Source: a phage
Reading direction: 5' to 3' (one strand)
DNA length: 64,000 nt
Sequence record: PZ495249.1
The notes beneath the pieces were generated by a model. It had not been told where the DNA came from. It ran no database searches and worked only from the letters and a program-made list of their open reading frames with translations. Position numbers and translations under genes: made by a program. Below are positions 980 to 52,329 of the stretch, piece by piece. Positions within the stretch are counted from its first letter, which is position 1, and each line of letters begins with the position of its first letter.

Positions 980-1879
980 TTATTTGTAATTTTTACGAAG
1001 ATTGCCGTTCAGAATGAAATTCTGGAGCGCTTGTTGGTTTAACACCAGTTTACCTGTCTCGTCAACATTATTCTCCCACACATTGAAAGAATGGATGCAA
1101 TCAAAGTGCTCATTTAGTTCTTTCATACCCTTAGAGAAGATACCGTGGGTAACGAACAGTTCAATCTTACCAGCGTTACGTTCACGCAATACTTTGGCAA
1201 GCTCAATGAAAGTACGACCACCATCGCAGATATCATCCACGATCATCAAATTCTTACCGCAGAAGTCCTCGACGTTGATGTTGGTCTTGACAATATCTCC
1301 GGTCTTCGTATCACGGATTTTCTCTGCACAGTGTACAATGAGTTGCATTGGTTTAGCCAGTTTGAAGATTTTCTTCAAGGCTCCACCGTCTGGACTAACC
1401 AGATCAAACTCTTCCATACGGAGTTTCCAGTTAATCGCGAACATTGCAATCTCTTCTTGTGGGATAACAAACAAGTTATGGATTACAGCCGGAGTTACAT
1501 CACTGTGCGGATCAGCAACAGTCACACGGTCAAAGTTAAGGTTGTTAAGTGCTTCTGCAAACGCACCGATACCATTGGCTTCACCTGGTTCACACACTCG
1601 GTCTTGTCGAGCATATGGCACATAGAGCATAACAAGCTCTGTTGTGTGAGGGATGAATTTAAGAATGTTATCAATTGCATTCTTAGTCATCAGCAACACC
1701 ATGAAGTCATTACCTGATCTTACTTCGTGATGGATAATCACACGAGAACCTGGTTCAGTTAATGCAATCATCGTGTCTGCATCAACACGTACATGTTCTT
1801 CTCCGCCAGAGAAGGTGAATGTTTTGATTGGTACAGGATAAACTTCACTGTTGTGTGGGTGCATGATATCAATCTTCAT
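980..1879 (-). CDS. prs: ribose-phosphate pyrophosphokinase (PRPP synthetase)
   Basis: Track ORF 980..1915; start moved to ATG at 1879 (MKIDIM...) just after upstream stop; VSPDGGA and MIVDDICDGGRT PRPP-binding motifs. Confidence 0.8.
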   Translation of the reverse strand: MKIDIMHPHNSEVYPVPIKTFTFSGGEEHVRVDADTMIALTEPGSRVIIHHEVRSGNDFMVLLMTKNAIDNILKFIPHTTELVMLYVPYARQDRVCEPGEANGIGAFAEALNNLNFDRVTVADPHSDVTPAVIHNLFVIPQEEIAMFAINWKLRMEEFDLVSPDGGALKKIFKLAKPMQLIVHCAEKIRDTKTGDIVKTNINVEDFCGKNLMIVDDICDGGRTFIELAKVLRERNAGKIELFVTHGIFSKGMKELNEHFDCIHSFNVWENNVDETGKLVLNQQALQNFILNGNLRKNYK

Positions 1880-2081
1880 TGTCTTCCTCCTCTTCTTCAA
1901 TTTCTTCAATTTCACTTAAACGATCAAGAATTGTCTGAGCCTGGTCCCAGAGAGCATCATAGGCTCTACGCTCACGAGGAGATAGCTGTGAAGGTCTGAA
2001 ATCATCTTGGTACATCTTATCAATAATATCTTGCATATCGTTCGATGTATTCTCGAACATACAATAACTCATGTTTGACAT
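1869..2081 (-). CDS. hypothetical acidic protein (C-terminal EIEEIEEEEEDNED)
   Basis: Track ORF; RBS AAGGAGAAAGAT upstream of ATG; first gene of minus-strand unit. Confidence 0.5.
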   Translation of the reverse strand: MSNMSYCMFENTSNDMQDIIDKMYQDDFRPSQLSPRERRAYDALWDQAQTILDRLSEIEEIEEEEEDNED

Positions 2082-7514: not shown

Positions 7515-8243
7515 ATGATCGAAGGATTTTTCAAGGACATTAAAGTAGACAAGCAGTTTTTCATCGACGCAGCAAAGCATATCGTTGAGTGGAATGCGAA
7601 AGCTCGTGGTGGAGAAACTCCAGAGTTTACCCAAGAGATGTTCATTTCTCAGATCGGATTTGTCCGTGAAGAACTGAAAGAGTTCCAAGATGCAGCACAA
7701 CTTAACGATCATGTCGAAATGCTTGACGCAGCGGCTGATGTGTTTGTTGTGGCATCCTATCTGGCATTTATGTTCTGGGGAGAAGAGCGAGTTAATCTCA
7801 TGCTGTCTCAGAATGTAGGCGATGTTTTCCCGTCAAACATCTATGATGAGTTCAATCAGATCGATGCAACGTTCACTGAGGCTGCTCAGATGGCTATCAT
7901 GACTCTCGGTATTACCCGTATGGCTCGCGACACTCTGGTGAGATCTGTGTATAACGAGAAGAAAGTGGTGAAAGAAGTGCTGAAAAGCAATGACTCTAAG
8001 TATCCAACACGTAGACAAATTCTTGCAGTGTGGGAAACAAAGGACATTGATTTCGCACTGGAGCAAGAATGTGCAGCAATTGAAGATCGTAACAAAGACC
8101 GTCCAGAAGGTGCATATACCGGAGTTCATGCTGTCTATAATGAAAAGCAGAAGGTGTATGTATTCTTTGATGACAAAGGTAAAATTATGAAACCTTCCAC
8201 CTTCGTTAAACCTGATATTGGGGCTATCGTTGGAAAATCCTAA
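7515..8243 (+). CDS. hypothetical protein, possible MazG-like nucleotide pyrophosphohydrolase domain
   Basis: Track ORF; REELKEFQDA...EMLDAAADVF resembles MazG helices; weak. Confidence 0.4.
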   Translation: MIEGFFKDIKVDKQFFIDAAKHIVEWNAKARGGETPEFTQEMFISQIGFVREELKEFQDAAQLNDHVEMLDAAADVFVVASYLAFMFWGEERVNLMLSQNVGDVFPSNIYDEFNQIDATFTEAAQMAIMTLGITRMARDTLVRSVYNEKKVVKEVLKSNDSKYPTRRQILAVWETKDIDFALEQECAAIEDRNKDRPEGAYTGVHAVYNEKQKVYVFFDDKGKIMKPSTFVKPDIGAIVGKS

Positions 8244-20538: not shown

Positions 20539-21534
20539 ATGCGATACCTGGTGACAGGTGGGCTTGGATTTATTGGGAGCGCGGTAGTGCGCTCTCTGCA
20601 TAAAAACCCACTTAACGAAATCTATGTTGTTGACAAATGGGGCTATGCCTCCGATCCACGTAATCTTACACTCACCCCAGATGTAAGATTCTGTAAGTTA
20701 GACTTGACAGACCTCGTGTTAACTGTTAAGATGCTGGCTGACATTAATCCAGATTACATTATCCACTTGGCGGCTGAAAGCCATGTTGACAATTCAATCT
20801 CTGCTCCAAAAGCATTCATTGAGTCAAATGTAATCGGTACGTTCAATCTGCTTGAAGCAGTGCGGTACATGGGTAACAGATCAAAGCTCAAGAAGTTCCT
20901 ACATGTCTCCACAGACGAAGTGTACGGCGATTTGAGCGTAGAAGATGTTCCGTTTACCGAAGACACACCTTATGCCCCAAGTAGCCCGTACAGCGCGTCT
21001 AAGGCAGCGAGTGACCATCTGGTACAAGCTTGGCATCGTACCTACGGAATTCCAACCGTAATTACCAATTGCTCGAACAACTTTGGTGCATATCAGCATC
21101 CAGAAAAGTTGATTCCCCGTGTAATTACGAGTATCATGATCGGTAAACAGATTCCTGTCTATGGGAACGGTTTACAAGTAAGGGATTGGTTGTTTGTCGA
21201 TGACCATGTAGATGCCTTGCTTCTGGCACTCACCGAAGGTAAGGTGGGAGAAACATATAATATCGGTAGTCGCAACCCTCGTACCAATATGGAAGTAATT
21301 TATATGATCTGTGATTATATGGATGCTGTCCATGCAGACAAGGGTTTCTATCCTGCATCAAATCTTATTAAATTCGTTAGTGATCGCCCTGGTCATGACA
21401 CTCGTTATGAGATTGATCCTACGAAGTTGGAGACAGAGTTAGGATGGGCTACTGAGGGTACATTCGAAGAGAAACTTTATCAAACCATTGAGTGGTATAT
21501 TGCTCACGACTTATGGTGGCAGAATAAAGTTTAA
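20539..21534 (+). CDS. rmlB: dTDP-glucose 4,6-dehydratase
   Basis: Track ORF; [33 protein letters not shown]; close to enterobacterial RmlB. Confidence 0.9.
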
Positions 21535-21542
21535 GGAGGAGC

Positions 21543-22469
21543 ATGAAAGGTATTATCCTTGCGGGTGGCAGTGGCACTCGTTTGTATCCGGTGACTAAAG
21601 GGGTAAGCAAGCAATTGCTCCCCATTTACGATAAACCGATGATCTACTATCCACTATCTGTATTAATGCTGGCAGGGATAAACGATATCTTAATTATCAC
21701 AACACCCGAAGATCAGCGTAATTTCCAACAGCTTCTTGATGACGGAGAAGACTTAGGAATCAGCATCACCTATGCAACTCAGGATCAACCAAGAGGGTTG
21801 GCAGAAGCCTTTATTATCGGTGAAGATTTCATTGGTGATGATTCTGTAGCCCTTGTCCTCGGAGATAATTTATTCTTTGGACAAAGTTTCGGTACTCTCT
21901 TACATTGTGCAAAAGAGCATGTGGAATTCTATGGCGGAGCCGGAGTATTTGGTTATCGAGTGAACGATCCTGAACGATTCGGTGTTGTAGAGTTCGATGA
22001 CTCAGGTAAGGTTGTGAGTATTGAAGAGAAACCTGTTAATCCTCGCAGCAATTATGCAGTTACTGGACTTTATTTCTACGACAATTCTGTGATTCAGAAA
22101 GCCAAAGAAGTGCAACCTTCTGCTCGTGGTGAATTGGAGATTACAGACATTAACGAAATGTACCTTAAAGAACGTGCGCTCCAAGTGTGGAAACTGGGAA
22201 GAGGTTTCACTTGGCTTGACACAGGTACACATGCAAGTTTAATGGAGGCATCTCAGTTTGTGCATACAATTGAGAAACAGCAAGGAATGAAACTCGCTTG
22301 CCTTGAAGAAATTGCATTTATGAATGGGTGGATTACAGCAGAGCAACTTATTCTGACAGGAACTGCCCTGGCTAAAACAGAATATGGACAATATCTGCTT
22401 TCATTAGGAGGGGTTAGATGGAAAGCACAATTAACGTCAGAGAAACCAGCATTGAAGGTCTTGTCGTAA
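21543..22469 (+). CDS. rmlA: glucose-1-phosphate thymidylyltransferase
   Basis: Track ORF; [16 protein letters not shown]...[17 protein letters not shown]. Confidence 0.9.
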
Positions 22470-22987
22470 TAACACCGAGGGTGTTCGGTGATGACCGAGG
22501 ATTTTTCCTTGAGTCTTTCAACCAAGCCCGATATGATAACCTTATTGGTGAACACACGTTTGTTCAAGATAACCACTCCCGTTCTACGAAAGGAGTCCTC
22601 CGTGGACTCCACTACCAAGAAACAAATCCCCAGGGGAAATTAGTGAGATGCACAAGCGGCATGGTATTTGATGTGGCTGTGGACTTACGTGAAGGTAGTC
22701 CGACCTTCGGAGAATGGGAAGGTGTTGTACTTAGTGAACAAAACAAAACGCAATTCTGGATTCCACCAGGATTCGCTCATGGCTTTGTCGTTATCTCAGA
22801 CGTAGCCGATTTCGAATACAAATGCACTGAATATTACGATCCAACCTCGGAACGCAGTTTACTCTGGAATGATCCTGATGTAGCTGTCGATTGGGGATTT
22901 GACTTAATCTTTGGTGATGAAAATTATCAGCCTATTCTATCTCAGAAAGATCGAGAGGCCAAAACCCTACGGGAGATTTTTGGATGA
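22418..22987 (+). CDS. rmlC: dTDP-4-dehydrorhamnose 3,5-epimerase
   Basis: Track ORF; cupin RmlC-like sequence; overlaps rmlA 3' end by 52 nt. Confidence 0.85.
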
Positions 22988-23820
22988 AACGATATTTAGT
23001 ATTGGGTGGTAATGGTCAATTAGGCCAAGCACTCAATAAAGTGAAGCCGGAAGATGTAGATTTAATTTATCCTGAACGTTGTGATATTACCGATTTCAAA
23101 CAGGTGAAGGATCTAATCGTACAAACTATGCCGGAAGCAGTTATCAACTGCGCAGCATATACAGCCGTCGATAAAGCCGAAGAGGATATGCAGACTGCAA
23201 TTAGTGTTAATGCATACGGTGCTGCAAATATTGCGAAAATCTGTGGTGAACTTTACATTGACTTAATTCACATTTCGACGGATTATGTCTTTGATGGTTC
23301 ATTCCCTGGTATTGAGGGTGCTGAAACAAATCCGTTAAATGTCTACGGTTACTCCAAGCGTTTCGGTGAAGAATTAGTTCACGCGGTTCATCCTGGGGCA
23401 TTAATTATCCGTACAGCTTCTGTGTATAGCGAATTCGGTAACAACTTCCTGAAAACTATGTTAAGCCGCTACAACGGCGGTCAACGTGAGTTTGATGTTG
23501 TCTGCGATCATTACTCCTGTCCAACATATGCTCCAGATCTTGCTGAAATGATTTTCACAATGTTGGAATATGGTGTTGGTGGTCGTATTCTTCATTACGC
23601 AGGTAAAGAATATTTAAGCTGGTATGACTTTGCGACACGTATCTTCTGGGAAATAGATATGACGGTTAAAGTAAACCCAGTATCTGCTGCTCAGTATAAC
23701 TCCAAGGCAGTACGACCTGCCAAATCCTATCTTGAAACCAAAGGGTTCCTGACTCCAAAACCAGTAGCCCACGGTATTAACGAATCACTGAAAGTTCTAT
23801 TAAATAAGGAGAGAGAATGA
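22984..23820 (+). CDS. rmlD: dTDP-4-dehydrorhamnose reductase
   Basis: Track ORF; GGNGQLG, STDYVFDG, YGYSK. Confidence 0.85.
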   Translation: MKRYLVLGGNGQLGQALNKVKPEDVDLIYPERCDITDFKQVKDLIVQTMPEAVINCAAYTAVDKAEEDMQTAISVNAYGAANIAKICGELYIDLIHISTDYVFDGSFPGIEGAETNPLNVYGYSKRFGEELVHAVHPGALIIRTASVYSEFGNNFLKTMLSRYNGGQREFDVVCDHYSCPTYAPDLAEMIFTMLEYGVGGRILHYAGKEYLSWYDFATRIFWEIDMTVKVNPVSAAQYNSKAVRPAKSYLETKGFLTPKPVAHGINESLKVLLNKERE

Positions 23821-26785: not shown

Positions 26786-27226
26786 ATGTTAGAAATTCCA
26801 GCTTCATTCATGGATAAGAACGTCCATGCATACCAGCAAATCTGTAAGCGAGCAAAGAATACACTGGATGCTATTGTCAGCAAACGTTATGTCATTTCTG
26901 AAAAGAAATGGTTCCGTACTATTCACTACGAAGTGAACGTTTTCGGTGAATGCAAACACAGAACAGGATCTACCGAGAGAATTCTGGAATGGATGCTTGA
27001 AAACGACCATATTTCCTCTCAAGACTATCAACTGCTCAAGTTCTACGACATGTCCAACATGGTAGATATTGTCATCGACAATCTCCAGGAACGCCGTAAC
27101 GAGAGCGATAAGGTGTCTGTGAATATGGATGAAATGCAACTCCTGTATTACATTGGAACGTTCACAGAAGACCCCACTTTAACGAAAGAGGAACTTCTTT
27201 TTGGCGAACAAGTACGACCGACCTGA
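26786..27226 (+). CDS. hypothetical protein
   Basis: Track ORF with AAGGAGGAG RBS. Confidence 0.5.
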   Translation: MLEIPASFMDKNVHAYQQICKRAKNTLDAIVSKRYVISEKKWFRTIHYEVNVFGECKHRTGSTERILEWMLENDHISSQDYQLLKFYDMSNMVDIVIDNLQERRNESDKVSVNMDEMQLLYYIGTFTEDPTLTKEELLFGEQVRPT

Positions 27227-27710
27227 GTCGGATTATTACCCAACACCACAAAAGTGTATTGAAGCACTGTTCAGTGTTATTGATTTTAAAAATTTGAGAG
27301 AAGAGGGTTGGCACTTTGCCGAGCCATGCCGAGGGGAAGCATCTGCGATTTATCAGCACTTCCCCGAAGGTTCAGAATATTGCGAGTTAGAAGAGGGTAA
27401 AGATTACTTTGCCAGTGTATGGGAAACCAAACCGGACATTATAATCACAAACCCTCCATTCAAACTGGCATTAGAGTTCTTGCAAAAGAGCTTACAAGAA
27501 GCAGACGTATCTATCTACCTGTTACGTTTGGGATTTCTGGAATCTAAGAAACGTCGAGATTTCCATAAAGCCAACCCTCCAACCAACTTGATTATTCTCT
27601 CTGAGCGACCATCGTTTGTTGCGGGTGGCACAGACAAGACAGCGTATGCCTGGTACGTCTATGATCCAAAACAAAGGCTTGGGCTTACCCAACCTTTCTA
27701 TTTTGTATAA
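27201..27710 (+). CDS. phage-type DNA N6-adenine methyltransferase-like
   Basis: Track ORF (TTG start); SDYYPTP and NPPF motifs. Confidence 0.55.
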   Translation: MANKYDRPESDYYPTPQKCIEALFSVIDFKNLREEGWHFAEPCRGEASAIYQHFPEGSEYCELEEGKDYFASVWETKPDIIITNPPFKLALEFLQKSLQEADVSIYLLRLGFLESKKRRDFHKANPPTNLIILSERPSFVAGGTDKTAYAWYVYDPKQRLGLTQPFYFV

Positions 27711-27973: not shown

Positions 27974-28636
27974 ATGAAATTCGTACTTTACCATCGTCTT
28001 TCCAAAAAGAAACAGCAAGGCAACCAATACGGTATTGAATCACAGGAAGTTGATATTCAACGTTTCCTGGACTCGCAAGAGAACTATACCGTGATCGGGA
28101 CTTTCGCTGAATACTACTCTGGTAAAGGTGACTGGAAGCAACGTAGAGAACTGGTGAAAGCCGTGGAACTCTGCAAAGCAACTGGTGCAACACTTGTGGT
28201 TGCAAAGGTTGACCGTTTAGGTCGTAACACTGCCTCAGTTGCAACGCTTCTCGAAATGGTGAATGTTCGTATTGCTACGATGCCCTCCGCTGAGAATATG
28301 GTGATTAATATCCTCGCCGTTCTCGCAGAAGAAGAAGCACGAGCGATCTCTGATCGTGTGAGAAAAAGTTTGAAAGTTGCCAAAGAGAAAGGTATACTCC
28401 TTGGTGCTGCAAATGAAAAATACAATCGTACAGATTACTCTAAGAGAGAGGAATCAAAGCGCTCTATGGAATTTGCCATGAGCATGAAAGATTCCCTTGT
28501 TGCTTTCCGTTCAATGAACACACCGTTCATGACAATTGCAAAGCATCTTAACGAAAGCGGTAAAACTACTATCCGAGGCAGCAAGTTTGATGCGAAAGCT
28601 GTCCAGCGCTTATGTTCTAAGTTAGAAATCAACTGA
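27974..28636 (+). CDS. serine recombinase (resolvase/invertase family)
   Basis: Track ORF; YHRLSKKKQ...GIESQ catalytic-Ser region, VAKVDRLGRN, C-terminal HTH-like segment. Confidence 0.7.
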   Translation: MKFVLYHRLSKKKQQGNQYGIESQEVDIQRFLDSQENYTVIGTFAEYYSGKGDWKQRRELVKAVELCKATGATLVVAKVDRLGRNTASVATLLEMVNVRIATMPSAENMVINILAVLAEEEARAISDRVRKSLKVAKEKGILLGAANEKYNRTDYSKREESKRSMEFAMSMKDSLVAFRSMNTPFMTIAKHLNESGKTTIRGSKFDAKAVQRLCSKLEIN

Positions 28637-35009: not shown

Positions 35010-35399
35010 ATGGGTTATTTAAATGATACATACATCACACCTACTAAGGATCAATTAAGTATGGCTCTTATTAAGGTGAAACGTGTGCGCGAACTCTACA
35101 AACCAATTAATGAGCGTTTGGAGAAGGAGACAGTAGAGGTTAAAAGTTGGTGGGGTTTACGCCGTAAGGTGATGACTAAAGATCAGCACATCCGTAAAGC
35201 TAACGAAAATTCTTTCATGCCGTTTTATGGTCGTGCATTTCTGCTCGGATACATAACAGCAGAAGAATACCAAATCTGCCGTTTCCTGATGGAGGCTCCA
35301 GGAGTGAAGACACTCCAAAAATGGGAAACAGCGGAGAGAGTATATCTTTGTGAAGATGACCACAGACAGTTGATGTTTGCTTTAACTGAGGAGATTTAA
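35010..35399 (+). CDS. hypothetical protein
   Basis: Track ORF. Confidence 0.5.
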   Translation: MGYLNDTYITPTKDQLSMALIKVKRVRELYKPINERLEKETVEVKSWWGLRRKVMTKDQHIRKANENSFMPFYGRAFLLGYITAEEYQICRFLMEAPGVKTLQKWETAERVYLCEDDHRQLMFALTEEI

Positions 35400-36076
35400 T
35401 GTCGAAAGTAGTATGGTGTTTATTTGATGGTAGTGGTATTATGGGATTACCCTGGGCTGAGGCTGGATACCAAGTTTATTGCTTTAATGCCAGTAGCGGA
35501 GATCACGGAGAGTATGAAATTAAAGTGGATCACCCTTTGATCACTTACGTCGATACTTGGATTGACTCTACCTTTGATCCAACAGGTATGGGTGACAACG
35601 GCGGTGATGCTCCTACGTTTATTATCGGCTTCCCGCCTTGTACAATGCTCGCTGGTAGTGGAGAGCAACACGAGCGTACTGCGGAAGAGATCGAAGAGGC
35701 GCTTCAAAACGTCCGTATCGTCGAAACTTTGGGTAATAAGTATGGTGTGCCGTGGATGATTGAGAATCCAGTGGGTAAATTGTCCACACTCTGGCGTAAG
35801 CCGGACTACTACTTCGATCCGTATGAGTTTGGTGGTTATCTCCGAAAAGAGGAAGGTAGTTATCACCCTAAAATGCCAGTACAGGATGCCTATACGAAGA
35901 AAACCTGCCTATGGGTAGGCAATGGTTTCGTATTCCCTGATAAAAAACCCGTAGAACATATTGGTTTCTTCTGGGGATGGCGTTATCTCGGTGGTAAGAG
36001 TAATCGAACAAAACAGTTGCGATCTCTCACCCCTCGTGGGTTTGCTCGCGCAGTGTTTAAGGCTAATAGGAGGTAG
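35399..36076 (+). CDS. compact C5-cytosine methyltransferase-like protein
   Basis: Track ORF; LFDGSGIMG (motif I-like), GFPPC (Pro-Cys motif IV), ENPVG (motif VI); only 225 aa. Confidence 0.5.
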   Translation: MSKVVWCLFDGSGIMGLPWAEAGYQVYCFNASSGDHGEYEIKVDHPLITYVDTWIDSTFDPTGMGDNGGDAPTFIIGFPPCTMLAGSGEQHERTAEEIEEALQNVRIVETLGNKYGVPWMIENPVGKLSTLWRKPDYYFDPYEFGGYLRKEEGSYHPKMPVQDAYTKKTCLWVGNGFVFPDKKPVEHIGFFWGWRYLGGKSNRTKQLRSLTPRGFARAVFKANRR

Positions 36077-36889: not shown

Positions 36890-37450
36890 ATGGGATTTGA
36901 TGACATGTTGGACTATGAGGGAAACTGCGTTAAAGAAGCTCTGGCCTTACCAGAACTGGAGATCACCATCACAGTGTATGACACTTATTCCGATTGTGAA
37001 ACTTGCGGTGCATACTGGAGCAGAGTTCTTGAAGTAGATGGAGACTTAGGGGAATTCCAGAGTGGTGATCGTGCAAGTTGTTTGGGTAGTAATGATGACG
37101 GTACTTATCACGAAGTTGCTCAATGGATTAACGCGCGACTTGAAGAGCATGGTCGTCCTGTTCCTGTACTATTGACACCGGATGCAATGCTGCAAGCTGA
37201 TAACGAGTATTACGCTCAAGCGGCTTTGGTGAACTATGATTATAATCATCCTTCGCTTGAGGCATTAGGACATAAAGCAGGTTGTCTGTCAGATGCTTTT
37301 GATGCATACTATACGTTAGACAGTCTGAAACGATTGTATTCTGCATTCGGTGTGACCATTTATGATGATCACAAGGCAGATGAGGTTTACGATGCCAGCG
37401 ATTGGGGCGATTATGAAGATAATGAGGAAGAAGAATGCCAAGACGACTGA
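36890..37450 (+). CDS. hypothetical acidic protein
   Basis: Track ORF 36863..37450 trimmed to ATG at 36890 after GGAGGA. Confidence 0.5.
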   Translation: MGFDDMLDYEGNCVKEALALPELEITITVYDTYSDCETCGAYWSRVLEVDGDLGEFQSGDRASCLGSNDDGTYHEVAQWINARLEEHGRPVPVLLTPDAMLQADNEYYAQAALVNYDYNHPSLEALGHKAGCLSDAFDAYYTLDSLKRLYSAFGVTIYDDHKADEVYDASDWGDYEDNEEEECQDD

Positions 37451-38250
37451 TTGTAATTTCTGGTGCAGGACTTAGCGCCGATAGTGGTGTACGTACATTC
37501 CGTACCGACACCGAAAGTGGAAAAGCACTTTGGGACGAATACGATCTTGCAGAGGTTTGTGATATTGGAGCATTCCAAGCTGGCTATCGTCGCCGTACAT
37601 CACCAGATGTTCCGGTTGTTGGTGGTATCGACGATGAAGGGATGGATCTGTACGAGAAGACAAACAACTTCTACAACAAACGCCGTGTGGAACTTGCAAC
37701 TGTAGAGCCTAACGCTGCACACCTTCAAATCGCTAAGTGGTTTGCAATGGCTCCTGAGCGTGTCTACAACATCACGACTAACGTTGATGACCTGTTGGAA
37801 CGTGCTGGCGTTGCTCGTGAATCTGTACTTCACGTCCACGGCTACTTACCAGAAATCCGTTATCGCTTAGAACCTGGTTCACAGGAACAACTTGTGGATG
37901 TAGGGTACGCTCATGTCGATATTGACGCATTCCATTGGACAAAACCTAACGTTGTGTTCTTTGGTGAGGCTGCACCACTCTATAATGACATGTACGCACT
38001 GTTCGACACGCTAACATCTCAGGATATGGTGATTGTGGTTGGCTGCTCTAACCAAGTGATCAACTTCAACTGGGAACTCTTCCCGATGCTTAACATCGGA
38101 ACTAAGATGGTTGTGGTGAACCCTGGGGTTAACTACCTGGAGACAGAAATGTATCAAGAACGGGGCGTGTTTGTTTATCGCGCCGGAGCCGCAGAAGCGT
38201 TCAGCAATGAGCACTTCATTAAGATGGTAGAGGATCACCTGAATGGTTAG
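37435..38250 (+). CDS. SIR2-family (sirtuin/CobB-like) NAD+-dependent protein lacking the Zn-ribbon cysteines
   Basis: Track ORF; GAGLSADSGVRTFR, PNAAHLQIAKW, TTNVDDLLERAG, HVHGY, VVFFGE align with CobB (recalled); no CxxC pairs. Confidence 0.75.
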   Translation: MPRRLIVISGAGLSADSGVRTFRTDTESGKALWDEYDLAEVCDIGAFQAGYRRRTSPDVPVVGGIDDEGMDLYEKTNNFYNKRRVELATVEPNAAHLQIAKWFAMAPERVYNITTNVDDLLERAGVARESVLHVHGYLPEIRYRLEPGSQEQLVDVGYAHVDIDAFHWTKPNVVFFGEAAPLYNDMYALFDTLTSQDMVIVVGCSNQVINFNWELFPMLNIGTKMVVVNPGVNYLETEMYQERGVFVYRAGAAEAFSNEHFIKMVEDHLNG

Positions 38251-38424
38251 TTGCTGTGAAGACAGTGATTTACATCCTTCGGATTGTTTCGACGATCCAA
38301 ACGAAGGATACGCCCACAACGTATCAATGTGCTATAATTGTGGGGCTATTGTAATAGATAGAGTTTGGTTGAACAGTGGGAGAACTATTGTGAAGTCAAA
38401 CGGGGAAGTTTTACAATCTTAAAC

Positions 38425-38446
38425 AAGGGGCGTAAGCCCCTTTCTT
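38425..38446 (+). terminator. GC hairpin, weak terminator
   Basis: AAGGGGCGTAAGCCCCTTTCTT. Confidence 0.45.
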
Positions 38447-38460
38447 ATTGGAGAAATAAT

Positions 38461-38718
38461 ATGACTGACAAATTAGTGAAAGACTTTTATATGATGCACT
38501 ACGTGTACTACTGGAATGATGGTACTAATCGTGGAGAAGGAAACCTCTACCTGGAAACACAAACGGGTACAGGTGTTAGAAAAGAACATATTGATGGGGC
38601 AATTGATCACGTCACCGTGGGATTGGTTAACAACTTGGGCGCTAACAGCGTTGTTGTCGTTCCTACCGGAATATTCTATCTCACCTCTTGCACACCAGAA
38701 GAATTTAACCACTCCTAA
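38461..38718 (+). CDS. hypothetical protein (85 aa)
   Basis: Track ORF 38365..38718 trimmed to ATG at 38461. Confidence 0.45.
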   Translation: MTDKLVKDFYMMHYVYYWNDGTNRGEGNLYLETQTGTGVRKEHIDGAIDHVTVGLVNNLGANSVVVVPTGIFYLTSCTPEEFNHS

Positions 38719-38786
38719 AACTCTCTAAAACGCTCTGTGGGCGTTTTTAATCGTAACTGGTACATCGGTTCATCTTATATATAGAA

Positions 38787-38820
38787 AAGCCCTCAGAAAC
38801 GCTCTGAGGGCTTTATTTTT
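38787..38820 (+). terminator. bidirectional terminator at convergent junction
   Basis: AAGCCCTCAGAAACGCTCTGAGGGCTTTATTTTT; weaker hairpin at 38728-38750; T/A runs on both sides. Confidence 0.65.
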
Positions 38821-38892
38821 ACTCATCTATGAACACACCTATGATTAACATGACCAAGATGATCATTGTAATCACTCCATCCCAGTACCCCA

Positions 38893-39123
38893 TCAATCTA
38901 AACCTTTCGCATAGAGTTCTACAACCAGTTCATCTTCATGCGTGATCCTGGCTATCTGTCGATCACGAAGGAACACTGTCTGGTAATGATGAATTTCGCT
39001 ACACAGGATACATTCCCACAATCCATCTTTCATTTGCTGGTTTACATGTACCTTTACCGGAAACGGGTGAGGGTTGTCCACCAGAAACGCCATACACCCT
39101 TCTTTAATCTCTGACATAATCAC
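38893..39123 (-). CDS. hypothetical protein
   Basis: Track ORF. Confidence 0.45.
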   Translation of the reverse strand: MIMSEIKEGCMAFLVDNPHPFPVKVHVNQQMKDGLWECILCSEIHHYQTVFLRDRQIARITHEDELVVELYAKGLD

Positions 39124-39328
39124 TCCTCAGTTTATCCAACACATCTTCGAACTCATCCGGCTCGTAGTTATATAGACGAGATGATAGCTCTTGGATTAGT
39201 TCCTCCGTAGAAACATCTTCCATATCACTCTTCTCCTCCTTGAGGTAACGATTTCGCCAACCGCAGCCACAATCACCTCCACCAACATAGTTATCACACA
39301 CTTGGCAGTATAAGTAAAGTCCATCCAT
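39104..39328 (-). CDS. hypothetical Cys-rich protein
   Basis: Track ORF. Confidence 0.45.
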   Translation of the reverse strand: MDGLYLYCQVCDNYVGGGDCGCGWRNRYLKEEKSDMEDVSTEELIQELSSRLYNYEPDEFEDVLDKLRSDYVRD

Positions 39329-39342
39329 ATTTTCCTCCTACG

Positions 39343-39365
39343 AAAAAAACCCGCCGAAGCGGGTT
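39343..39365 (-). terminator. rho-independent terminator (same hairpin as 11916/33987, minus strand)
   Basis: Plus strand AAAAAAACCCGCCGAAGCGGGTT. Confidence 0.65.
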
Positions 39366-39382
39366 ACATTTGATATTGACCC

Positions 39383-40375
39383 TTAGTGAGTCTGCGTTTT
39401 GAACGGAAGACGCTCATTGAATTCACGAGCACTACCTGTCAACTTGCCATCAGTGAAATAATAGCAGAATTCACCGTCTGGTGTGGACACACGTACAGCA
39501 TCAATCAGGTTGAACGGAACAGAAATGTTGTTACGAATCTCAATTCCACCAATATTTCTGCTGGTATCCACATGAAGTGCCTGATGTTCTGCACTCACTA
39601 CAACGTACTCAGCACGACGAATCTGATAGTCTTTACCATCTTTGTACAAGATGTACACGATGGTTTGCTTACGCTTTTCAGGCGCTTTACGCTGACGGCG
39701 CGGTGCATTCTTACTTGGTTTAACTGCAATCAGATCTTCGGCATCGTAGTGGTTAATCATGCCATTCTTCCAACGCACAGAGTACACATACATGTTATCT
39801 GGTGTTAATCCAGCCTTTTCGACAATCCCTTTCATGTTAATCGGATTCCAGCCGTACTCACCTAAGCCCACAAATTTTGATTTAGGATTGAGTACCACCA
39901 CATTTCCGTAGTTGAATACAGGCAGTGGCTTATTATCAGATAAAGGTGTGCTTGCATCCACCTCTTTCACCATACGAGGAACAAACATCCATGCACGAGG
40001 TACGAACTGATCGCCACCTTCGCCGTGAGGGAAGTGGATAAATACATTGTACCCTGCCAGATCACCTGAACGATACACACGTTCAGCATCGAACACTTTG
40101 CCTACAAGCTGATCTTTAAATGAATAACTACCATCTAAAATCTGTACTTTAACTTTGTTCATATCTGACATAGGTTTCTCCTCAATAATTTCAATGTTGT
40201 GTAAGTCGAAAATCCACGTAGTTCCTGGTGGGTATTTAAGGATACTATCATGTTCATGATCGATAATCAACCATGCACAACCAAGTTCCTCGTTTATTTC
40301 CGCCACTGAATAAGTGTTACCTACGACTTCTTCTTTGAAGCTGTAGCTTCTTGAGCGCAACACCTTAGCTCTCAT
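39383..40375 (-). CDS. hypothetical protein with internal duplicated segment
   Basis: Track ORF 330 aa; SYSFKEEVVGNTYSV and SYSFKDQLVGKVF repeats. Confidence 0.55.
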   Translation of the reverse strand: MRAKVLRSRSYSFKEEVVGNTYSVAEINEELGCAWLIIDHEHDSILKYPPGTTWIFDLHNIEIIEEKPMSDMNKVKVQILDGSYSFKDQLVGKVFDAERVYRSGDLAGYNVFIHFPHGEGGDQFVPRAWMFVPRMVKEVDASTPLSDNKPLPVFNYGNVVVLNPKSKFVGLGEYGWNPINMKGIVEKAGLTPDNMYVYSVRWKNGMINHYDAEDLIAVKPSKNAPRRQRKAPEKRKQTIVYILYKDGKDYQIRRAEYVVVSAEHQALHVDTSRNIGGIEIRNNISVPFNLIDAVRVSTPDGEFCYYFTDGKLTGSAREFNERLPFKTQTH

Positions 40376-40670
40376 TGCCCTTCTCCACTAAGCCAAGAGA
40401 CTGTGAATACTCTCTGTAAAACTTCACCTTCTCTTTCTTGAAAGCTATCTTATCAGGATCTGGCACAAAGTCAAACCCTTCTTCCTCATTTAGAAGTTGA
40501 ATAATAGCCAGAAGATCATTAATCTCCTGGTGGAGGCGTTCGCGATTAGTTTCGTCACGCCCTGTTTGCATTTCTTCTGTCCCGAAGTGCATGTTTTTTG
40601 AGGCCATTTGACCGACCTCATTACATTCCTCGGATAGTTTGAGAAGAAGATACTGCCAATTCTTCATCAT
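40365..40670 (-). CDS. hypothetical protein, possible MazG-like pyrophosphohydrolase
   Basis: Track ORF; LLKLSEECNEVGQ resembles MazG helix; tentative. Confidence 0.4.
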   Translation of the reverse strand: MMKNWQYLLLKLSEECNEVGQMASKNMHFGTEEMQTGRDETNRERLHQEINDLLAIIQLLNEEEGFDFVPDPDKIAFKKEKVKFYREYSQSLGLVEKGNES

Positions 40671-41829: not shown

Positions 41830-42429
41830 TTAATAGGTTGCTTCATGTGGGTAGAAAAAGTACAGATCCGATTCTCGGAAGCCGAATGGTTTATTTACAC
41901 CAGGGATCATGTTCAAAATACTCCCTTTGATGTTAATTCCATTGTCTTCTTTCTGGTACTCGCCTGGGTATAAACGGAGTGTGACAGGAAAATTTACATC
42001 TCCCAGTTCCGCGAAATCCCCATCGTTGAGCAAAGTTACTTCTAAGGCTTCAACGGTTAATGGCTTAACTGCATCTTCACGTTTTCCGAGGAGAAAGTCA
42101 ATCGCTTTTTCAAGAGCGCGATTGTTGAGAACCTCTCCTGTCTCTTCAAAATATGCATCAGCCACACGTAGTGTGCGCGGATCAAGTGGTTCCTCTGCAC
42201 GTTTGAACGTCGCAGGGAGGAGAGGGCAAAGATTGATCCGCTTCTCTTCATCATACCAATGACAGATCCACACTTTGTTATACTCCATCTGGTAATCTTC
42301 CGCGATCAGAGTTACCAGTGTCCCAGTGGCTGGAACACGGTAGTAGTCACTGATAGGTGCGCCTGTAAACTTAACCACCAGACCTGGGCGGAGCGGTGAT
42401 AAACCGTCCCAGTAATCATCTCTTGTCAT
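41830..42429 (-). CDS. hypothetical protein
   Basis: Track ORF. Confidence 0.5.
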   Translation of the reverse strand: MTRDDYWDGLSPLRPGLVVKFTGAPISDYYRVPATGTLVTLIAEDYQMEYNKVWICHWYDEEKRINLCPLLPATFKRAEEPLDPRTLRVADAYFEETGEVLNNRALEKAIDFLLGKREDAVKPLTVEALEVTLLNDGDFAELGDVNFPVTLRLYPGEYQKEDNGINIKGSILNMIPGVNKPFGFRESDLYFFYPHEATY

Positions 42430-42872
42430 AGATACCCCTTATCCTCAACACCATCCATTGAAGATTCCCAACCATGAGAATAATAGCCATTATGGGAATT
42501 GTAGAGATGCAGGTAGGCAACACCTCCTGTTGCACTATACATACGAAACACAACAGTTTCATCAAAGTCGTAGTTATCAACAAAAGTGGTATCAAAACGA
42601 TAACCTACCAGTTCTGCTTCTTGAACTTCCGGCACATTTTCGTGATCTTCATAGCCTACAGCTTCACGAGTAATGTACCAACCGAACTGCTCACAGCACT
42701 GACCATCCATATCATAACCTACAAAGTTATCAAGATCATCAATGAAGTTAATGCTGCTGGTGTAATTTTTGTAATTCTCTTTGATTAGCATATCAAAGCC
42801 CCATTTCTTCGATATATGCTTCCAGTTCAGGGTGTTCAGCCAAGAACTGTTCCCAAGCTGCATTTGCTTCAA
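42426..42872 (-). CDS. hypothetical protein
   Basis: Track ORF. Confidence 0.5.
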   Translation of the reverse strand: MKQMQLGNSSWLNTLNWKHISKKWGFDMLIKENYKNYTSSINFIDDLDNFVGYDMDGQCCEQFGWYITREAVGYEDHENVPEVQEAELVGYRFDTTFVDNYDFDETVVFRMYSATGGVAYLHLYNSHNGYYSHGWESSMDGVEDKGYL

Positions 42873-42995
42873 AAGCGGTCTGAATTTCTTCTACCGTGGG
42901 GCTTGGATTGAACACAACAGCCATATCTGCCTGACAGGAGGTGGCGAGCAGGACAACAGCACGTTCGAGGATATCTTGATTTGGAATATTCATTG
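42793..42995 (-). CDS. hypothetical protein (67 aa)
   Basis: Track ORF 42793..43128 trimmed to ATG at 42995 after AAGGAGAAACC. Confidence 0.4.
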
Positions 42996-43003
42996 GTTTC
43001 TCC

Positions 43004-43636
43004 TTATTTGTATGGATAAAACAGATTGTTACCTTCAATCTCTTTGTGGTAGATCGGTTTATTCTTGGCAATATATGCCAGCTTTTCAGCAGTTTGGATG
43101 TTTGGTGCAGGGTTTTCACCGAACACATCCTCAGAGTGGATGTAGCTCAACCCACGGATAGGGAATCCCCAACCAGCATCAGACCCAGTAAGACCTGCCT
43201 TTATTGCACGATGTGATCGTGCGGCATCTTCGTAACCGTAACGGTTATATTCAAGATTATACCCGCCAATCGTTTCCATTGCAAGTTTATCTTGATAAAC
43301 GAAACAACCAAGAGCACTGAACCAGTAAGTGATATCACTCTCAGCATACAAGAACTCACCACCGAAGATATCTGGCAGAACCATGTAGTGAATACCATTT
43401 GCTTGCGCTTCCTGGATGAAATAATCTTCCCAACCCAGACGAGTTGGATAACAGTCGTCATCAAAGATGAATACGTGATCGTAGCCATCAAAGTGAGCAA
43501 GCACCTGATTACGTGCATGACCAGGACCAAGCCGCTCTATATCTGTGTAGATAAAGGTTTCGTGCGTAGTTTTCTCAAAGAACTTCGGATTAATCTCACG
43601 AAGTCCCATAGTGATTACGCCAACGCCAATTTTCAT
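43004..43636 (-). CDS. GT-A fold (family-2-like) glycosyltransferase
   Basis: Track ORF; DDD (DxD) motif and GGYNLEYNRYGYEDAARSHR. Confidence 0.6.
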   Translation of the reverse strand: MKIGVGVITMGLREINPKFFEKTTHETFIYTDIERLGPGHARNQVLAHFDGYDHVFIFDDDCYPTRLGWEDYFIQEAQANGIHYMVLPDIFGGEFLYAESDITYWFSALGCFVYQDKLAMETIGGYNLEYNRYGYEDAARSHRAIKAGLTGSDAGWGFPIRGLSYIHSEDVFGENPAPNIQTAEKLAYIAKNKPIYHKEIEGNNLFYPYK

Positions 43637-43649
43637 ACTACCTCCATTC

Positions 43650-43919
43650 TCAATTAGTGAAATGGTATTTCACATCAATATTCATATATTCCAGTTCGCG
43701 ACCTTCTTCAAACTCCGTGTAGGTGAAGGTGATGTAGGCAATACCATACCGATCAAAGTTGAAGGTTGGTACTTTTTCACGAATCTGCTGCACAGCGAGA
43801 AGAATATCTTCCTCCTTCTCCCAGTAAGAATAAGTGCCATCTTCTTCCATGACAAGCTGCTTCTCCTGAATATCAACGAAGACATAACAATTTTGCGGCT
43901 TATCTCGTTTAGTGGACAA
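43650..43919 (-). CDS. hypothetical protein
   Basis: Track ORF (non-ATG start as reported). Confidence 0.4.
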   Translation of the reverse strand: MSTKRDKPQNCYVFVDIQEKQLVMEEDGTYSYWEKEEDILLAVQQIREKVPTFNFDRYGIAYITFTYTEFEEGRELEYMNIDVKYHFTN

Positions 43920-51162: not shown

Positions 51163-51368
51163 GTTTTCACCTCGAAAGTTATACCCCAAAGCCTTTCAAT
51201 ATCATAATCGGGAATAGCATCGCCATCTCCATCAATTATTACCAACCCGTAAGAAGATAGCCTATTGCTGTCCGGCTCGCACTTGAACAGTTCAAACGCC
51301 TGGTAAGTTTCCCCATCTTTGAAACACGCACAATTCGTGTTGGGCTTACATTTTGCAATCACTTTCAT
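51159..51368 (-). CDS. hypothetical Cys-containing protein
   Basis: Track ORF 51159..51419 trimmed to ATG with AGAGGAGG RBS. Confidence 0.45.
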   Translation of the reverse strand: MKVIAKCKPNTNCACFKDGETYQAFELFKCEPDSNRLSSYGLVIIDGDGDAIPDYDIERLWGITFEVKT

Positions 51369-52329
51369 TTGAAACCTCCTCTGTAAGGGTGTCCACACGT
51401 ACACCACCAAATCTTTCATAGATACTAACCACTTTATCGTAGTCTGTCAAGGCTACCGTTTCTGTCCATCCATCAGGCATGTCAAATTTGGATACAACAC
51501 AACACTGCAAAGTATCTTTACATGTTTTTTCTGCTGCTTTGCACAGTTTAGTGGTTTCAAACCTGTACAATCCAATACGTTCCATCTTAACTTTGTTGTT
51601 ATAATTTTGTTCTCTTATACGAAGATCACTATTTGTTGCTACCCCAAACTTAATAGCCATAACCACACCATTATCGCGTATGATATTGATATAACATTCA
51701 AATTGATTATGTCCTGCACACTCAGGGCAACCTGATCCGCGTAAAAGAGAACCCGTGGTTTTCACCTGTTCACCATGTACTGGACATATGTACTTAAACT
51801 TAGTAGTGTTCCCAATACGTTCAGGACTAATTTCTAACCACCCGTTAAAAATTAATCCTGTTTTTTCAAGTTCTTTTTCTATCCTGTACTGCCATTGCTC
51901 ATTGTTAAATCTGAAATTATGTGCGCACCTACACGGAACGGAACCTCTTGTCAAAGATTGTGTTGTGGATAAAAATACCCCAGAACAGTTACCGCTGCTC
52001 ACGTAGCCATCTACCGAACACTTAGGACAGAACACTTGCCATTGCGAGGCATGACCATCCAAATCATTATCATTAACTGGCGTGAAAACCGTCCCCTCTG
52101 TAAACTTACCTGTTTTGTAAAAATTTTCAATGTGCTCAGTAACGGTTAATGGCTTGGGTAATAAAGCTGATAGAGCCTCACTTGGACTATCTCCTCGGTG
52201 TAATCTTGCACGATATGATCCATTCTTGATACCCAACCAATCGCAAATTTGCGTCATGTTAAGTAAATTAACATCTGAACTCTCAAATACTTTACCATCC
52301 AGTGTTAGTTTTATCTCTAATTCCACCAC
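51346..52329 (-). CDS. hypothetical Cys-rich protein, possibly nuclease/Zn-finger-like
   Basis: Track ORF 327 aa; several CxxC/CPxC pairs. Confidence 0.5.
   Translation of the reverse strand: MVELEIKLTLDGKVFESSDVNLLNMTQICDWLGIKNGSYRARLHRGDSPSEALSALLPKPLTVTEHIENFYKTGKFTEGTVFTPVNDNDLDGHASQWQVFCPKCSVDGYVSSGNCSGVFLSTTQSLTRGSVPCRCAHNFRFNNEQWQYRIEKELEKTGLIFNGWLEISPERIGNTTKFKYICPVHGEQVKTTGSLLRGSGCPECAGHNQFECYINIIRDNGVVMAIKFGVATNSDLRIREQNYNNKVKMERIGLYRFETTKLCKAAEKTCKDTLQCCVVSKFDMPDGWTETVALTDYDKVVSIYERFGGVRVDTLTEEVSNESDCKM
51422..51450 (-). promoter_or_regulatory. sigma70-like promoter inside 3' end of upstream CDS
   Basis: Minus strand TTGACA-17nt-TAGTAT about 54 nt upstream of 51368 start. Confidence 0.45.

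Follow-up and report, generated by a model that had tools for sequence, protein, structure and literature searches.

Phages related to phi92 and phAPEC8 have repeatedly been noted to carry a full dTDP-rhamnose pathway, the purpose of which was left unanswered (PMC7552041, PMC8594841, PMC10844046), and it has already been proposed that the rml genes of such phages feed a glycosylation system (PMC7552041; PMC8594841). Among mycobacteriophages, the virions of Myrna, Che8 and Corndog are reported to be glycosylated by phage-encoded glycosyltransferases (GTs) (PMC12363180; PMC11256854). Here, we analysed a GT gene located at 43004-43636 on the minus strand of a 64,000-nucleotide stretch of phage DNA (sequence record PZ495249.1; the whole stretch is hereafter called the window), together with its possible link to the rmlBACD operon of the same window. 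In GenBank and PHROGs, relatives of this GT already bear the annotation 'glycosyltransferase'; the new elements are the cassette context of the gene and its relocation, the pairing of GT-A and GT-B enzymes across many phages and prophages, an exception devoid of rml genes, and the homology with Myrna gp234. Our best overall explanation, to which we give slightly less than an even chance, is that the enzyme performs one step of a multi-GT glycan assembly that is fed by rml and possibly takes place on virion proteins.

The gene (43004..43636, minus strand) is an open reading frame (ORF) of 210 amino acids. Its ATG at 43636 is preceded, 4 nt upstream, by a Shine-Dalgarno sequence, GGAGG (43641..43645, minus strand), read directly from the sequence, and an 89-aa ORF located upstream ends with a stop codon at 43650-43652, leaving a gap of 13 nt. 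The N-terminus of the protein (MKIGVGVITMG) agrees with the family consensus. The DDD and YGYED...R motifs, from which the original prediction had recognised a GT, were both found, at residues 59-61 (within VFIFDDD) and 133-137 (within RYGYED, 132-137) followed by R143, and both are conserved in an alignment of 33 GT homologs (39-93 % identity) in which R13, D32, N43, D59-D61, Y133, G134, E136, D137 and R143 are invariant. The putative catalytic signature would thus comprise R13, D32, D59-D60-D61 (DxD) and E136-D137. According to the secondary structure of the model described below, the DxD follows the fourth strand and the acidic catalytic-base segment lies in the C-terminal half.

The PHROG 2456 'glycosyltransferase' profile matched the protein from end to end (E 5.4e-52, residues 1-210 on profile positions 3-238 of 239). 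For the GT itself, the Pfam models Glyco_transf_7C (21.6 bits, gathering cut-off 23) and Glycos_transf_2 (18.0 bits, gathering cut-off 23.3) stayed under their cut-offs; at E<0.01 they were matched by 28/33 and 25/33 family members, respectively. No NCBIfam model, the rhamnosyltransferase model included, was matched by the GT at E<=1; within the family, the rhamnosyltransferase model TIGR01556 was matched only weakly, by the mycobacteriophage protein LinStu gp237, and one member is named 'galactosyltransferase-related' by NCBI. Searches of PDB sequences, whether started from the protein alone or from the family profile, returned no solved relative, and the fusion partners of longer family members show no informative domains. 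The protein is soluble, its Kyte-Doolittle score exceeding 0.93 in none of the 19-residue windows. It is also acidic, with a pI of 5.1, a property common to the entire family (median pI 5.3, net charge -9). A membrane-anchored, GtrB-like O-antigen modification enzyme was ruled out because the GT has no hydrophobic segment.

The AlphaFold2 model built on the family alignment (predicted local distance difference test, pLDDT, 95.6; predicted template modelling score, pTM, 0.92) displays a single Rossmann-like alpha/beta/alpha GT-A fold. Foldseek searches against the PDB returned, at E<=1e-3, only GT-A-type nucleotide-diphospho-sugar transferase folds, mostly GT-A glycosyltransferases. The structural neighbours and their scores were chondroitin polymerase K4CP (14.1), polypeptide GalNAc-T1 (13.5), GlfT2 (13.4), WrtF (13.2), beta4GalT7 (12.7), TarP (12.6), the Listeria rhamnosyltransferase RmlT (12.6), SpsA (12.2) and the viral GT-A proteins STIV A197, PBCV-1 A64R, mimivirus R699 and R655 and vaccinia H3 (9-12). 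As users of dTDP-sugars and users of UDP-sugars score alike, the fold does not tell the donors apart; in the viral fold library, only unnamed or generic GT-A proteins were matched. Structure prediction, which had been suggested as a check on the original assignment, therefore supports the view that the enzyme is a GT-A. Judging from sequence and model, the protein is a genuine GT-A glycosyltransferase of the metal-dependent type (DxD), belonging to the phage-wide PHROG 2456 family, for which sugar transfer is predicted.

Several known enzymes share the fold with few further similarities. The inverting GT-As of the Glyco_transf_7C type (beta-1,4-galactosyltransferase 7/1, K4CP) and the polypeptide GalNAc-transferases are just 10-16 % identical to the GT, which is far shorter and possesses neither a lectin nor a stem nor a membrane domain. 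The systems that glycosylate the capsid or fibrils of giant viruses (PBCV-1 A64R; mimivirus R655, R699 and R707-type GTs, with virus-encoded NDP-rhamnose synthesis) show no sequence similarity to the window GT. Chloroviruses and mimivirus have eukaryotic hosts and use UDP-L-rhamnose rather than dTDP-L-rhamnose.

The family is widespread: we found 54 close homologs of the GT, and a profile search of 1.84 billion cluster representatives yielded 1650 relatives at E<=1e-3. The DNA of the window is distantly similar to Klebsiella phages KP2025 and KP13-26, the latter classified in Stephanstirmvirinae, and its source is a phage of the Klebsiella type, related to phi92 and phAPEC8. The amino-acid identity of the GT is 68-73 % with its counterparts in KP13-26 (73 %), KP2025, phi1_175008, FKP3 and Citrobacter phage Tr1, 48 % with its ortholog in Klebsiella phage KP13-16 and 36-37 % with the homologs of phi92-like (Justusliebigvirus) and phAPEC8-like (Phapecoctavirus) phages. 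The PHROG 2456 GTs of Stephanstirmvirinae (phi92 gp164/165 region, phAPEC8, tuntematon gp114, VEcB gp195) and the Klebsiella and Citrobacter orthologs (KP2025 XCO36193, KP13-26, FKP3, phi1_175008, Tr1) have the same size, match over the full length and share the invariant residues; the genomes of these phages likewise carry rmlBACD. Additionally, family members occur in about 550 mycobacteriophages of clusters F and C (26-31 % identity) and in several Pseudomonas prophages. A 23-kb IMG/VR contig (L013, IMGVR_UViG_3300048913_000035) encodes a GT that is 97 % identical and all the same small neighbours at 83-100 %, and is for this reason regarded as a near relative of the source of the window.

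In E. coli phages, the gene belongs to a cassette. Both tuntematon (phAPEC8-like; gp113-116) and VEcB (phi92-like; gp194-197) possess four consecutive GT genes directly upstream of the primase/helicase gene, and the homolog of the window GT is the second of the four (tuntematon gp114, VEcB gp195). The gene also lies within the cassette in KP13-16, where three GTs of 184 aa, 211 aa (the family member) and 320 aa are encoded, and in a phage contig from a Serratia assembly (L015; GT 67 % identical), where the cassette is intact. In the window, KP2025 and KP13-26, by contrast, it is solitary among small genes: the cassette site of KP2025 and KP13-26, which adjoins the primase/helicase gene, retains only GTs of 189 aa (PHROG 14179) and 320 aa (PHROG 7162), and the family GT is found about 58 kb away, within the leftward small-gene block, as in the window. 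Comparison of these gene orders shows that, in the lineage of the window, the GT was displaced from the cassette into this block; since the cassette is intact in KP13-16 and L015 and split in the window's own lineage, the relocation is recent and lineage-specific. No small gene was found to travel with the GT, its neighbours being conserved only within this lineage and variable even there. When the window was mapped onto KP2025, the cassette site fell outside the window, and the two partner GTs (PHROG 7162 and 14179) would be expected in the source genome beyond its limits, as in the relatives.

The cassette organisation extends far beyond this subfamily. A scan of IMG/VR retrieved 487 GT relatives, of which the best 80 loci were analysed and grouped into 42 lineages at 80 % GT identity. 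A homolog of the ~320-aa GT (PHROG 7162, GT-B-like, with weak matches to Pfam Glyco_trans_1_4) immediately adjoins the family GT in 61/80 viral loci, i.e. 29/42 lineages, always in the same orientation. Other recurrent neighbours are PHROG 14945 GTs (40 loci, with roughly two copies in each), PHROG 14179 GTs (14 loci) and, near the family GT in 17 loci, an FkbM-type methyltransferase; a Toprim-DnaB primase/helicase lies upstream of the GT set and terminase genes lie downstream. In Pseudomonas chromosomes, a family member resides within a lambdoid prophage, where the GT-A/GT-B pair stands 13 nt upstream of the terS-terL-portal-capsid (head) genes, at the start of the head-morphogenesis operon (L139, 10001-11604, prophage of Pseudomonas sp. 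dw_358; also L093, L095 and L096). The family is normally part of a co-oriented multi-GT cassette placed between replication genes and packaging/head genes.

Within the window itself, the claim that this is the only recognisable GT stands as far as Pfam scans and tblastn could probe it. No second GT was detected by a Pfam scan of about 45 ORFs, which comprised nearly all non-nested ORFs of at least 150 aa and a minority of the shorter ones, namely the small neighbours of the GT; and tblastn of the other cassette GTs of the relatives against the window found nothing.

The complete dTDP-L-rhamnose pathway is encoded in the nucleotide-metabolism block of the window, on the plus strand, by rmlB (20539-21534; Pfam GDP_Man_Dehyd/Epimerase), rmlA (21543-22469; NTP_transferase), rmlC (22418-22987; dTDP_sugar_isom) and rmlD (22984-23820; RmlD_sub_bind), all four being confirmed by Pfam (E 1e-72 to 1e-81). 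The predicted rmlA and rmlC ORFs overlap by 52 nt (22418-22469); as E. coli phage homologs align only from RmlC residue 5-7, rmlC probably begins a few codons further on. A terminator scan revealed convergent terminator-like hairpins in the interval 38307..39365 (38425-38442 and 38786-38814 on the plus strand, 39365-39348 on the minus strand), and the GC skew changes sign near 38 kb. The hairpins mark the boundary between a rightward replication/nucleotide block, with rml, and the leftward small-gene block, with the GT; the two therefore belong to different transcription units. A promoter scan of the window gave a signal not above chance.

In terms of gene content, the GT and rml go together in this lineage. 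Among Escherichia phage records, the GT was counted 107 times, RmlC 106, gp194 106 and gp196 107; among Klebsiella phage records, the counts were 9, 8, 9 and 10, respectively (gp194 and gp196 being two other cassette proteins), and each of the six closest relatives possesses the GT as well as RmlC. This co-occurrence across the phi92/phAPEC8/Klebsiella-phage lineage is confounded by common descent. As the close relatives possess two further GTs and the E. coli relatives three, the GT is one of three to four candidate users of the phage-made sugar, and by gene content it would be one of three in the lineage of the window. The original prediction had presented it as the partner of the rml operon: this is plausible, given that GT and RmlC co-occur in the lineage, and yet the link appears neither specific nor required, in view of the other candidate GTs, of the conserved GT-B-like partner, and of KP13-16 and mycobacteriophages, which lack rml. 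The GT is thus a plausible user of dTDP-rhamnose without being a privileged one, and we are inclined to doubt, though not strongly, that it is itself the rhamnose-using enzyme. The simplest reading is that rml acts as an accessory donor supply for a pre-existing multi-enzyme glycan pathway.

We propose that the GT would perform one transfer, probably inverting, as its 'GYED' segment corresponds to 'GGED', the motif that holds the catalytic base in beta-4-galactosyltransferases. This step would contribute to a short oligosaccharide assembled with the cassette partners, and since the GT is the second enzyme of the cassette, sugar extension is more likely than chain initiation. The rmlBACD operon would probably supply dTDP-L-rhamnose to one of the three to four GTs, and such a phage-borne supply would allow the glycan to be made in hosts without rml. 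As for the acceptor, proteins of the phage's own particle would be the most likely, by analogy with mycobacteriophages Che8, Corndog and Myrna; of all the links in the argument, this one is the weakest.

The case for virion proteins comes first from mycobacteriophages. Myrna gp234 belongs to the family through its N-terminal domain (BLASTP 1e-13; hhalign 99.2 %, E 3.6e-19), and gp234, one of two annotated GTs in the region examined, lies directly upstream of virion structural genes. LinStu gp237 (cluster C1) belongs to a four-GT group that adjoins a virion structural protein gene, and Pacc40 gp98 (cluster F) occupies the same right-end locus as the Che8 cassette. With the N-terminal domains of Myrna gp234 and Pacc40 gp98, and with LinStu gp237, the GT thus shares both homology and a common concept, i.e. 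sets of phage GTs that build a glycan from multi-GT loci beside structural or packaging genes; these homologs differ in often having a second domain and in belonging to phages without rml. The position of the Pseudomonas prophage pair at the head of a morphogenesis operon was also counted for a virion target, and polypeptide GalNAc-transferases and the capsid-glycosylating A64R of PBCV-1 rank among the top structural matches. The specific form of the idea, i.e. that phages of the phi92/phAPEC8 type, the window's lineage included, attach a rhamnose-containing O-glycan to their capsid or tail proteins by means of three to four GTs and dTDP-rhamnose, with the same GT-A/GT-B module likewise at work in many unrelated phages, including Pseudomonas prophages, is put forward tentatively, and we judge it rather improbable as a whole.

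Several observations weigh against an rml-fed, virion-directed glycan. Concerning the virion, the ED of the putative catalytic dyad is replaced by EH in the mycobacteriophage homologs, and the window GT lies among early-type small genes, away from structural genes. One of two GTs reported to be essential for capsid glycosylation in Che8 is gp110 (PMC12363180); BLASTP of the GT against Che8 gp109 and gp110 was not significant and the match with gp108 covered 44 residues only. The GT was accordingly dropped as an ortholog of the Che8 cassette enzymes, as it has no full-length homology to gp108, gp109 or gp110. Ser/Thr-rich C-terminal tails were not seen on the head proteins of one Pseudomonas prophage, a quick look that is uninformative. 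Freeman reportedly found, in 2023, little evidence for virion glycosylation beyond actinobacteriophages. Our literature searches retrieved no virion glycosylation, no characterised GTs and no donor or acceptor experiments for phi92-like or phAPEC8-like phages. Moreover, the partner GTs of the window's lineage are presumed from relatives whose GT is 68-73 % identical.

Concerning the donor, GT and rml are 19 kb apart, on opposite strands, in convergent transcription blocks. KP13-16 (OP617741.1; L009-L012), a 137-kb Stephanstirmvirinae phage that amounts to a natural 'rml knockout', keeps the cassette, whereas a tblastn search covering 98 % of its genome found none of RmlA, RmlB, RmlC and RmlD; at the syntenic place between nrdB and phoH, where the window has rmlBACD and a lysozyme gene, KP13-16 has just four small ORFs. 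RmlA, RmlC and RmlD are absent within 10 kb of the family GT in 80/80 viral loci, the sole RmlB-like match in this range being a weak one (L021, 29 % identity), and no rml gene lies within 10 kb in 46/46 cellular loci, nor was one detected in the 10-kb flanks of the Pseudomonas prophage members. Finally, none of the ~550 mycobacteriophage genomes with a family GT was among the RmlC matches of a whole-genome search. The results on KP13-16, on the mycobacteriophages and on these 126 loci speak for an alternative in which the GT is unrelated to rml and takes its donor from host UDP-sugars (Glc, Gal, GlcNAc, GalNAc), the rhamnose being used by another cassette GT, e.g. that of PHROG 7162, or for another purpose. 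The similarity of the GT to galactosyltransferase-type Pfam models, the 'galactosyltransferase-related' member, the absence of an NCBIfam rhamnosyltransferase match and the two to three alternative GTs of the relatives point in the same direction, and we consider this alternative evenly poised between true and false.

The structural comparison also bears on the host envelope as target. Many of the best neighbours (K4CP, GlfT2, WrtF, TarP, TarS, RmlT, AvpGT) are enzymes of polysaccharide or teichoic acid synthesis, rhamnose is a sugar typical of envelopes, and surface glycans are the receptors of phi92-like phages (PMC8594841; PMC11990801). The GT set and phage dTDP-rhamnose could then modify a host surface glycan or a lipid-linked precursor during infection (candidates being the lipopolysaccharide core or O-antigen, enterobacterial common antigen, capsule or the NGR glycan), in order to block superinfection or to keep progeny off cell debris, or, in temperate relatives, as lysogenic conversion; glycan-modifying conversion genes are common in temperate Pseudomonas prophages such as those that carry family members. 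However, the GT has neither membrane segment nor amphipathic anchor, the prophage pair is tightly coupled to terS by its 13-nt gap and is no isolated moron with its own terminator, and the cassette is kept in strictly virulent phages, beside replication and packaging genes. In the view of the BASEL authors, moreover, a phage is unlikely to profit from modifying abundant surface glycans completely within one lytic cycle (PMC11990801). We regard envelope remodelling as unlikely, yet, in view of the polysaccharide-building structural neighbours, as a rival to be taken seriously.

DNA was proposed as the target of the rml genes by Olsen et al. 2020 (PMC7552041). In this case, the GT would add rhamnose or another sugar to a modified base, as T4 glucosylates hydroxymethylcytosine. 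The rml genes do lie in the nucleotide-metabolism block, adjoining the ribonucleotide reductase and ThyX genes, and the cassette adjoins primase/helicase and terminase genes, a frequent site of DNA-modification genes. The comparison with phage DNA GTs that had been suggested alongside the original prediction lent little support. With the GT-A enzymes of this type (TET/5mYOX- or ThyS-associated, TAGT, base-J glucosyltransferase-like), the window GT has in common the fold and the R...DDD...ED signature (10.1101/2023.12.21.572611), and 12/33 family members weakly matched the Pfam model TAGT (PF20691, TET-associated GT), with a best E of 3.7e-6, below the cut-off; the GT itself has no TAGT match, even at E<=1. 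On the other hand, no ThyA-type hydroxymethylase or TET/JBP-type oxygenase was found among the ~45 scanned ORFs of the window, in which the only thymidylate synthase found is of the ThyX type, and no gene making hydroxymethyl bases was found among the conserved neighbour families of the family GT. The uniform acidity of the family also argues against this target, as do the FkbM methyltransferase neighbours, which suit glycan tailoring better than DNA glycans. As far as its supplementary text shows, a published list of viral genomes with DNA-type GT-A enzymes includes neither Stephanstirmvirinae nor mycobacteriophages, and phi92-like phages were described as 'exceptionally susceptible' to restriction-modification despite their 'putative dTDP glycosylation machinery' (Maffei et al., PMC8594841). 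DNA glycosylation by the GT is thus disfavoured, and we hold DNA hypermodification to be very improbable. Roughly weighed, virion proteins are the leading acceptor, at clearly less than an even chance, followed at some distance by the host envelope and far behind by DNA, the remaining weight going to something else.

The small genes around the GT had been described as all of unknown function. This is mostly the case, the exceptions being a MazG-like protein (40365-40670, minus strand; PHROG 4856) and two proteins with DUF matches. The MazG-like gene, 2.3 kb downstream of the GT, is one of two in the window encoding MazG/PRA-PH-like nucleoside triphosphate pyrophosphohydrolases, the other being located at 7515-8243 (plus strand). 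The ORFs predicted downstream of the GT at 42793-43128 and 42426-42872 (both minus strand) were probably called too long: an ATG at 42992 with a GGAG in front of it gives a 66-aa protein (42793-42992) that matches a 69-aa coding sequence at the same place in KP2025, and the next gene probably starts from an internal ATG at 42791 (121 aa), as in KP2025. The leftward small-gene block also encodes a 327-aa protein with two CapR homology domains (51346-52329, minus strand; PF21817, E 6e-21).

Elsewhere in the window, two plus-strand genes at 35399-36076 and 27201-27710 match PHROG 'DNA methyltransferase' profiles (phrog_757, E 5e-82, and phrog_799, E 7.5e-56, respectively). Their products have no Pfam match at all, hence none to a C5-methyltransferase; the KP2025 counterpart of the first is annotated as a DNA cytosine methyltransferase. 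A serine recombinase gene (27974-28636, plus strand; Resolvase N-terminal domain, E 1.3e-20) lies in the replication/nucleotide block of this seemingly virulent phage. A SIR2-family protein (37435-38250, plus strand) and a phosphoribosyl pyrophosphate (PRPP)-synthetase-like protein (980-1915, minus strand) are also encoded, and KP13-16 carries cobB, pnuC, nadR and prs, which hints that phages of this group possess a module for NAD salvage or counter-defence.

The phi92- and phAPEC8-like phages infect a broad range of hosts, and collections for phage therapy make wide use of them. The question of what their rhamnose pathway is for can now be sharpened: rml should be considered together with a set of three to four GTs, this set can work without phage rml, and DNA is an unlikely target. 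If the host envelope were the target, the system would represent a new kind of receptor masking by virulent phages. If capsid or tail proteins did carry a rhamnose O-glycan, they would provide the first example of a glycosylated virion among phages that infect Gram-negative bacteria; antibody access to the particles could then be hindered by such a glycan, an effect reported for mycobacteriophages, and this would bear on the choice of phages for therapy.

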